A DNA stretch of 64,000 bases, from assembly GCF_055900595.2 (NCBI RefSeq), contig NZ_CM148325.1; one strand, given 5' to 3'. Made by a program: the position numbers and the translations under genes. Positions 9,136 through 10,054 of the stretch are shown here, one piece after another. How positions within the stretch are numbered: position 1 is the first letter of the stretch; the number at the start of each line of letters is the position of its first letter. The notes below the pieces were generated by a model. The model saw nothing but the letters and a program-made list of their open reading frames with translations, had not been told where the DNA came from and searched no databases.

Positions 9136-10054
9136 GAATCTTGACCTTTTTTGCTGTTATCGCCACTCCCTGCCGTGGAAGTCAGCTTAGAACAATGTAC
9201 TCCCCCAGGACGGCGTTTTGAAGGTCTGCAGAATAAGATTTTGCCAGAGGGGAAGACTCGATTGTGCTGTTAATAACTTAATAATGGCAAAATAATGAGG
9301 TGTATATGCTTAGTAATTAATGTTATGTAGTGAATTGTTCTGATTCTTAATTGTGAGTGTGGTTTTTTTATCTGTAAGATAATTGTTTGAAAATGCCTCG
9401 TTTAAGAATTCACTAATGAATCGTGATGATGATATTTCCGCATTACGGAGAGTTTAACAGCGTGATGATTTCCGAGGTGTCGTAATGGGTGCAAGGTGTG
9501 AAACTATTGTTAAGCGGGATTAATGAATGAGGATGATGCTAATTAATTATTATTTAATATTCAAAAAGGTTTTGTTGTGCTTATTAATAATAGAAGATTA
9601 CTTTGCCTAACATAACATAACTTTGCATCAGATAATTCGCAATGACCCTTATAAATAAAAGGTTTTTGGGGTAAAATGCTCGCATAAATGACGGATCCCT
9701 GCTCTTGATGCCGCCTCACCATTGCTGTTTGTACGTGTTCGCGTATGACCAGCGATGCTGCACGAGAGTGGAACAAGGACTCACATTTACATTTATACAA
9801 ACACGCGCATGTCATAAATACAAAAGAGTGAGTAACTTAATAGATATGCGATTCCTGAAGATATATTCTGTGATCTACTTCAGGCATTATAACGGAACAA
9901 TGTGAGTCGCTTTTTTAGTGCAACTCATATGCATTTTTACTTTCGTCCGGGTTCCGGATGAAACTGCCAGGGAGGCACATTACAAATGGAATTGCTTGTT
10001 TGTGTGTGCACAGCATTAACCAGCTCAGTACGAGCCGCCAGTAAGTGATAATAT
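9136..10054. promoter_or_regulatory. long AT-rich alaA-lrhA intergenic region (lrhA promoter and leader)
   Basis: 919 bp with no ORF over 90 codons, visibly AT-rich, directly upstream of lrhA; individual sites not resolved. Confidence 0.5.

Follow-up and report, generated by a model that had tools for sequence, protein, structure and literature searches.

The rpoS, csgD and flhDC mRNAs, all of which encode master regulators, have leaders of several hundred nucleotides that are bound by Hfq and targeted by several small RNAs (sRNAs); in the case of rpoS, ArcZ and RprA open an inhibitory hairpin and so activate expression. LrhA is a master repressor of flagellar motility whose influence extends to RpoS, fimbriae, virulence genes and CRISPR-Cas. 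The leader of its gene has been described in Escherichia coli K-12 by Melamed et al. (2023, eLife; PMC10578931), who reported an lrhA 5'UTR of 371 nt and called it "unusually long". In that study the lrhA leader was a top RIL-seq partner of UhpU and was also found in chimeras with ArcZ, RprA and McaS; an lrhA-lacZ fusion was repressed by UhpU, ArcZ and RprA, and the UhpU-lrhA pairing was proved by compensatory mutation. McaS formed the most RIL-seq chimeras with lrhA, yet it did not repress the fusion, and the authors suggested that McaS itself may be the regulated partner of lrhA. Lalaouna et al. (2017; PMC5861431) found lrhA enriched 744-fold with MS2-RprA, and destabilised, and a review of ArcZ (PMC11331407) describes its pairing in the 5'UTRs of the lrhA orthologues hexA and pecT. 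Bilusic et al. (2014; PMC4152368) co-immunoprecipitated with Hfq RNA from "ig-lrhA-alaA", detected on northern blots Hfq-bound leader fragments of 150 and 350 nt together with the full-length lrhA mRNA of 1.5 kb, and observed that lrhA mRNA is elevated in an hfq mutant.

The DNA from which this leader is transcribed has its own literature. Shimada et al. (2014; PMC3946193) listed the "920 bp-long lrhA-alaA" spacer together with csgD-csgB and nanC-fimB, long spacers that hold many transcription-factor sites. ChIP-seq combined with RNA-seq classes lrhA as a direct, Lrp-activated target (10.1101/276808), and LrhA autoregulation is named in the literature, besides Lrp, for the control of the gene. 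In a hypermotility screen of ST131, Tn5 insertions in the lrhA-alaA gap were strongly enriched (PMC5425062), and insertions in the alaA-pigU gap of Serratia raised pigU (PMC10810281).

Here we analyse this gap in a 64-kb stretch of E. coli DNA (NZ_CM148325.1; the window). We conclude, with high confidence, that two core genes transcribed in opposite directions share this gap as their control region and that it is divided into three functional zones.

Results

In the window, the alaA coding sequence (7918..9135, minus strand) and that of lrhA (10055..10993, plus strand) are separated by 919 bp (9136..10054), exactly the divergent gap that the first-pass annotation of this DNA had delimited. The gap between lrhA (b2289) and alaA (b2290) in K-12 MG1655 has the identical length and no annotation inside, and the two sequences differ by 27 substitutions and no indels. 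Four of these strain-level differences lie in the lrhA leader, and none in the validated UhpU site or the lrhA -10 hexamer. Six of the 27 fall within 7 bp (9312-9318; TAC.TGC in K-12 and AGT.ATT in the window), in what looks like a multi-base replacement in non-conserved spacer. The AT-richness that had been claimed for the gap is real, its G+C content being 38.3% vs 51.4% for the whole window, and it is uneven: 48% at 9136-9245, 32% at 9246-9683 and 43% at 9684-10054. The AT-richest stretch of the window lies elsewhere (about 62450-63950), where 919-bp windows have 30-32% G+C, below the alaA-lrhA gap. The gap on the other side of lrhA, between lrhA and nuoA (10994-11622), is a second long AT-rich one, with 629 bp and 35-42% G+C in 200-bp windows. 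The features that we recognise in the alaA-lrhA gap are listed in Table 1.

Table 1. Coordinates of features in the alaA-lrhA gap (positions are those of the window; a dot in the strand column means that no strand is assigned)
Feature	Position	Strand	Basis or detail
Predicted alaA 5' leader, ~53 nt, with AAGG Shine-Dalgarno-like element	9136..9188	-	Promoter hexamers just upstream
Conserved alaA-leader stem-loop ACUUCC-ACGGCA-GGGAGU	9164..9181 (9181->9164)	-	Fold and covariation
Predicted alaA sigma-70 promoter	9195..9222	-	-35 TTCAAA 9222->9217, 16-nt spacer, -10 TACATT 9200->9195
Poorly conserved AT-rich spacer	9246..9495	.	19-49% identity, without conserved ORF; within 9246-9683
Conserved AT-rich upstream blocks TGTGAAAnnAnTGTTAAG..ATTAATGA, AATTAATTATTATTTAATATT, TTAATAATA	9496..9595	.	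57-71% identity vs 20-45% in flanks
IS1 insertion point, 9-bp target duplication TACTTTGCC	9599..9607	.	Strains H8, YZMc17-1 and EC17CM12
lrhA core promoter region	9626..9677	+	Conservation in 79 sequences and published start site
Conserved ATCAGATAATTCGCA	9627-9641	+	Part of lrhA core promoter region
-35 region CTTATAAATA	9648-9657	+	Part of lrhA core promoter region
-10 hexamer TAAAAT	9672-9677	+	Part of lrhA core promoter region
lrhA 5' untranslated leader, 371 nt, start A9684	9684..10054	+	PMC10578931 and primer SM079
Predicted ArcZ pairing site AAACUGCCAGGGAGGCA	9961..9977	+	Against ArcZ nt 59-79, core UCCCUGG; best compact duplex
Conserved motif AAANGGAAUUGCUU	9983..9999	+	85% identity at 9986-9995; contains the non-conserved uORF start
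uORF, 20 codons, MELLVCVCTALTSSVRAASK	9986-10048	+	GGAGG Shine-Dalgarno 9971-9975; ends 6 nt before lrhA AUG
UhpU pairing site CCGCCAGU, experimentally validated	10035..10042	+	lrhA-M1 gBlock and published compensatory mutation
lrhA translation initiation region, (G)UAAGUGA, A-rich spacer and AUG	10043..10057	+	Near-invariant in 79 sequences

The gap is present in 5425 of the 5426 complete E. coli genomes, always on the chromosome and with 95-100% identity, and the only annotated feature found under it is an occasional IS1. With the LrhA protein as query we retrieved 80 loci, almost all of which belong to other Enterobacteriaceae; 78 have a divergent alaA upstream of lrhA, across a gap of 764-1140 bp (mostly 920-1010). 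This common layout indicates that the gap is ancestral and not acquired. One of the loci (CACSKA010000019.1), labelled Chryseobacterium sp. 18061, is a typical Enterobacteriaceae alaA-lrhA locus with an LrhA 78% identical to the query, and the label is probably due to assembly contamination or mislabelling.

We aligned the window with the 78 orthologous gaps (79 sequences) and scored identity to the window base. From alaA towards lrhA, conservation is strong at 9136-9245 (65-94% in most 10-bp bins) and near random at 9246-9495 (19-49%); AT-rich, moderately conserved blocks follow at 9496-9560 and 9583-9591, then a conserved stretch at 9626-9680 (about 70-78%) and a weakly conserved one at 9684-9975 (19-58%), and conservation returns at 9976-10054 (54-85%). 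Thus, discrete conserved blocks coincide with the promoters and with the 3' end of the lrhA leader. The alaA ATG and the lrhA -10 hexamer also lie at a remarkably constant distance from each other (median 535 bp, mostly 520-542), and a looped nucleoprotein architecture was considered on this account; we dropped it, since the lrhA-nuoA gap, taken as a control, varies still less in length (614-645 bp for 70 of the 74 Enterobacteriaceae loci), and fixed spacing is thus common to such long regulatory gaps in general.

The start of the lrhA transcript can be placed on the window from published primers: the primer SM079, used by Melamed et al. (PMC10578931) for their fusion, opens the lrhA fragment with ATAAATGACGGATCCCTGCT, which corresponds to 9684-9703, and this start gives 371 nt up to the AUG (9684-10054); both the published length and the primer are the work of a single laboratory. 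Position 9684 lies 7 nt past the last base of a -10 hexamer that reads TAAGAT, TAAAAT or TAGGAT in nearly all 79 sequences (TAAGAT in most genera), and directly past this hexamer conservation collapses, the signature of a promoter. Its -35 element is weak, and a simple sigma-70 scan misses it: a consensus scan of the gap gave 2 promoter-like sites vs 3.3 ± 1.9 expected, without excess. The shorter lrhA 5'UTR of older annotation was without a start-site signal in the study of Bilusic et al. (PMC4152368), and a minor proximal lrhA promoter may exist. An unusually long lrhA leader, as the first-pass annotation had it, is therefore correct as to the leader itself, published at 371 nt and starting at 9684, but not as to the whole gap, of which the leader makes up only 40%, with less AT (43% G+C) than the stretch upstream of it. 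The multiple promoters that had been anticipated are probably there, the gap holding that of lrhA and, because the two genes are divergent, a predicted one for alaA.

The AT-richest part of the gap, the 438 bp of 9246-9683, lies upstream of the lrhA start site and is untranscribed regulatory DNA, not leader. The conserved blocks at 9496-9595 are candidates for binding by transcription factors or nucleoid proteins that would control lrhA, with Lrp as one putative occupant. In three strains (Table 1) IS1 has inserted some 80 bp before the lrhA start, where it splits these upstream blocks from the core promoter, an insertion that probably alters lrhA expression and motility; one such IS1 copy occupies positions 773-1540 of a locus in NZ_CP010172.1.

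At the 3' end of the lrhA leader, the validated UhpU site can be located to the base. A single base separates the lrhA-M1 gBlock (PMC10578931) from K-12; it corresponds to C10039 -> G in the window, at -16 from the AUG, and a windowed duplex search pairs CCGCCAGU with AACUGGUGAC of UhpU, covering C10039. Since this contact lies just upstream of the (G)UAAGUGA initiation region, in which AGTGA and ATGAT show little or no variation among the 79 sequences, UhpU acts beside the ribosome-binding site. Among the sRNA sites only that of UhpU is treated here as established, and the positions at which ArcZ and RprA pair are predictions. When ArcZ, RprA, McaS and UhpU were paired with the leader by unconstrained duplex prediction, the hybrids were long and uninformative; a search with 22-nt windows was more useful, with some matches in the non-conserved leader still outranking the conserved sites. 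The predicted ArcZ duplex, in which CCAGGGA would pair with UCCCUGG (-19.7 kcal/mol), lies at -94..-78 and is kept only in Escherichia and a few Citrobacter. The fold of the whole leader is only modestly better than shuffles (z = -2.25), and RNAalifold found no consensus structure in its last 100 nt. By eye, other genera appear to have different stems at the place of a local hairpin (10023-10035).

On the alaA side, GAGTACATT, which holds the predicted -10 hexamer, and CTTCAAA, which holds the -35, vary hardly or not at all across the 79 sequences, while the spacer between them varies freely. From these conserved hexamers we predict a TTCAAA-16-TACATT promoter from which alaA transcription would begin near 9188, giving a leader of about 53 nt whose identity to the window base is 65-94% in the 79 sequences. 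Shimada et al. (PMC3946193) gave other alaA hexamers, TTAAGA-17-TATAAC, at about 9323-9351, and the literature that we searched gave nothing usable on where alaA transcription starts, where Lrp binds or which sRNA might be a partner.

This predicted leader has at its 5' end a stem-loop that belongs to its minimum-free-energy fold and has a near-invariant ACGGCA loop on a CUUCC/GGRAG stem in about 78 Enterobacteriaceae. Its outer pair covaries (AU:11, GC:10, GU:6), and 82.5% of the cells are paired, a fraction that falls to 40-58% on shifting the partner by 1-3 columns. The U-G wobble of E. coli works on the alaA strand only, because the opposite strand would give a C-A mismatch. No description of the stem-loop was found in the literature searched, and this conserved hairpin is the only new item in the gap. 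That it is a previously undescribed cis-regulatory RNA element, and not a passive 5' stabiliser or a DNA operator, we consider a tentative and rather doubtful proposal; if true, it could be a protein or sRNA site tying alanine transaminase synthesis to amino-acid status.

Discussion

The reading that we favour is that of a control region serving both genes, in which each zone has its own role. (i) Zone 1 (9136-9245) comprises the predicted alaA promoter and the alaA leader with its conserved 5' stem-loop. (ii) Zone 2 (9246-9683) is the untranscribed AT-rich DNA from which regulators, probably through the conserved blocks, act on the lrhA promoter with its weak -35. (iii) Zone 3 (9684-10054), the lrhA 5'UTR, is a post-transcriptional hub. 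A lower level of LrhA relieves the repression of flhDC, and with it of motility, and feeds into the RpoS and RprA circuits. The convergence of several stress- and metabolism-responsive sRNAs on the lrhA leader indicates that the region matters biologically.

Gaps of this size had been expected to hide a small RNA or a small protein, and two of the alternative readings are of this kind. The one that survives best, although we think it unlikely, is that the gap encodes a free-standing sRNA, the Hfq-bound species of 150 and 350 nt being that sRNA or a sponge that titrates, for instance, McaS, and more than products of leader decay. Those bands are discrete and were first classed as intergenic RNA (PMC4152368), and McaS, with its many lrhA chimeras and its lack of repression of the fusion, is possibly the regulated partner. 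However, the same work traced the intergenic signal to the 1.5-kb lrhA mRNA, the plus strand of the gap is without any terminator-like site (the single match, at 9084-9103, sits inside alaA), and the first 290 nt of the lrhA leader are poorly conserved. Nor is there a match to a known family, since a scan of 8500-11700 with Rfam 15 (E<=1) returned nothing within 9136-10054. The only Rfam match in the scanned region, Aggregatibacter sRNA 41 (19.6 bits vs a gathering score of 97), arises from a GC-rich hairpin that stands between runs of A and of T just past lrhA (11033-11104), which is probably a bidirectional terminator. The small-RNA biology of the gap lies in the base-pairing of UhpU, ArcZ and RprA with the leader and in its Hfq-bound fragments; an independent sRNA gene is unsupported.

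As for proteins, the longest ORFs of the gap (84 aa at 9561..9815, minus strand, and 66 aa at 9705..9905, plus strand) recur only in another E. coli, which bears out the first-pass annotation in its statement that no credible ORF is present. Those ORFs that are widespread do no more than overlap the conserved promoter and leader of alaA, and a search of the gap for an ORF with start, frame and peptide conserved across genera found none, which goes against the hidden small protein that the same annotation had entertained. A more specific version, that the leader hides a translated uORF through which sRNAs such as ArcZ control lrhA by translational coupling, would follow the model of RyhB, which acts through the uof ORF upstream of fur, and to us it seems very improbable. 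Certainly, this uORF and the spacing of its Shine-Dalgarno are visible in the sequence, the predicted ArcZ site covers its GGAGG, and 13 of the 79 sequences, of which Citrobacter and Salmonella contribute 10, have an ORF with this ATG whose TGA stop overlaps the lrhA ATG (ATGA). Nevertheless, the start ATG is found in only 32 of the 79, with AAG, AGG or ACG in most of the others even though the surrounding motif is conserved; the equivalents range from 4 to 37 codons, with peptides unrelated at their 3' ends; the end of the ORF near the lrhA start is forced by stops in all three frames there; and no ribosome-profiling support for it was found in the literature searched. Since the motif AAANGGAAUUGCUU is conserved without a conserved ATG, length or peptide, it acts as RNA and not as coding sequence.

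The last alternative takes up a further claim of the earlier reading, that of curved, nucleoid-protein-bound DNA with many A/T tracts. The tracts exist, but in no excess over composition-matched shuffles: 14 runs of A4+ or T4+ vs 11.4 ± 3.0, and 24 W6+ runs vs 19.4 ± 3.1. In the central part, the AA/TT phasing at 10-11.5 bp is reached by 30% of the shuffles, and in the orthologues the phasing power at 10-11.5 bp has a mean z of 0.93. With tracts and phasing both within what composition predicts, there is no sequence evidence of intrinsic curvature and the claim is left unsupported; nor were H-NS occupancy data for the lrhA-alaA gap found in the literature searched. That the AT-rich stretch came in by horizontal transfer, or is curved DNA of foreign type silenced by H-NS, and owes its size to xenogeneic silencing and not to dedicated regulation, is the least credible of the readings, for which speak the 32% G+C of 9246-9683 vs 51% in the window and the landing of IS1 there in some strains, and against which stand the presence of the gap and its flanking genes in 78 other Enterobacteriaceae and in 5425 of 5426 E. 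coli (hence ancestral), A/T tracts and helical phasing at the level expected from composition, the table of Shimada et al. (PMC3946193), in which neighbouring spacers are marked 'HNS' and the lrhA-alaA row is not, and the adjacent lrhA-nuoA gap, which is as long and as constant in length.

The control region shared by alaA and lrhA is thus real, ordinary and already described: the length of the leader, its sRNA partners, the size of the spacer and its role have all been published for E. coli K-12 and are therefore already known. What the present analysis gives for this strain is a map at the level of coordinates, with the lrhA start at 9684, the UhpU contact at 10039 and the IS1 hotspot at 9599-9607.

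The closest relatives of this system fall at different distances. At the gene level, lrhA has homologues in hexA (Photorhabdus and Xenorhabdus), pecT (Dickeya) and pigU (Serratia), of which the Serratia pigU is also divergent from alaA; there, transposon insertions in the alaA-pigU gap alter the levels of the regulator (PMC10810281). For these genera, which lie outside the 80 loci compared here, the likeness is drawn at the level of the genes. The leaders of rpoS, csgD and flhDC resemble that of lrhA in their regulators, ArcZ and RprA being common to lrhA and rpoS, and McaS to lrhA, csgD and flhDC. The comparison with rpoS also reveals differences: (i) the sRNAs shown to act on lrhA (UhpU, ArcZ and RprA) repress it, whereas rpoS is activated; and (ii) the lrhA leader is not known to form an inhibitory structure, its whole fold reaches a z of only -2.25 and its 3' end is without a consensus structure. 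The nearest of all is the lrhA-alaA spacer of E. coli K-12 (PMC10578931, PMC4152368, PMC3946193), which is the same locus as that of the window: neither genome has an annotation in the gap, both share one sequence at the start site and at the UhpU site, and only strain-level SNPs distinguish the two.
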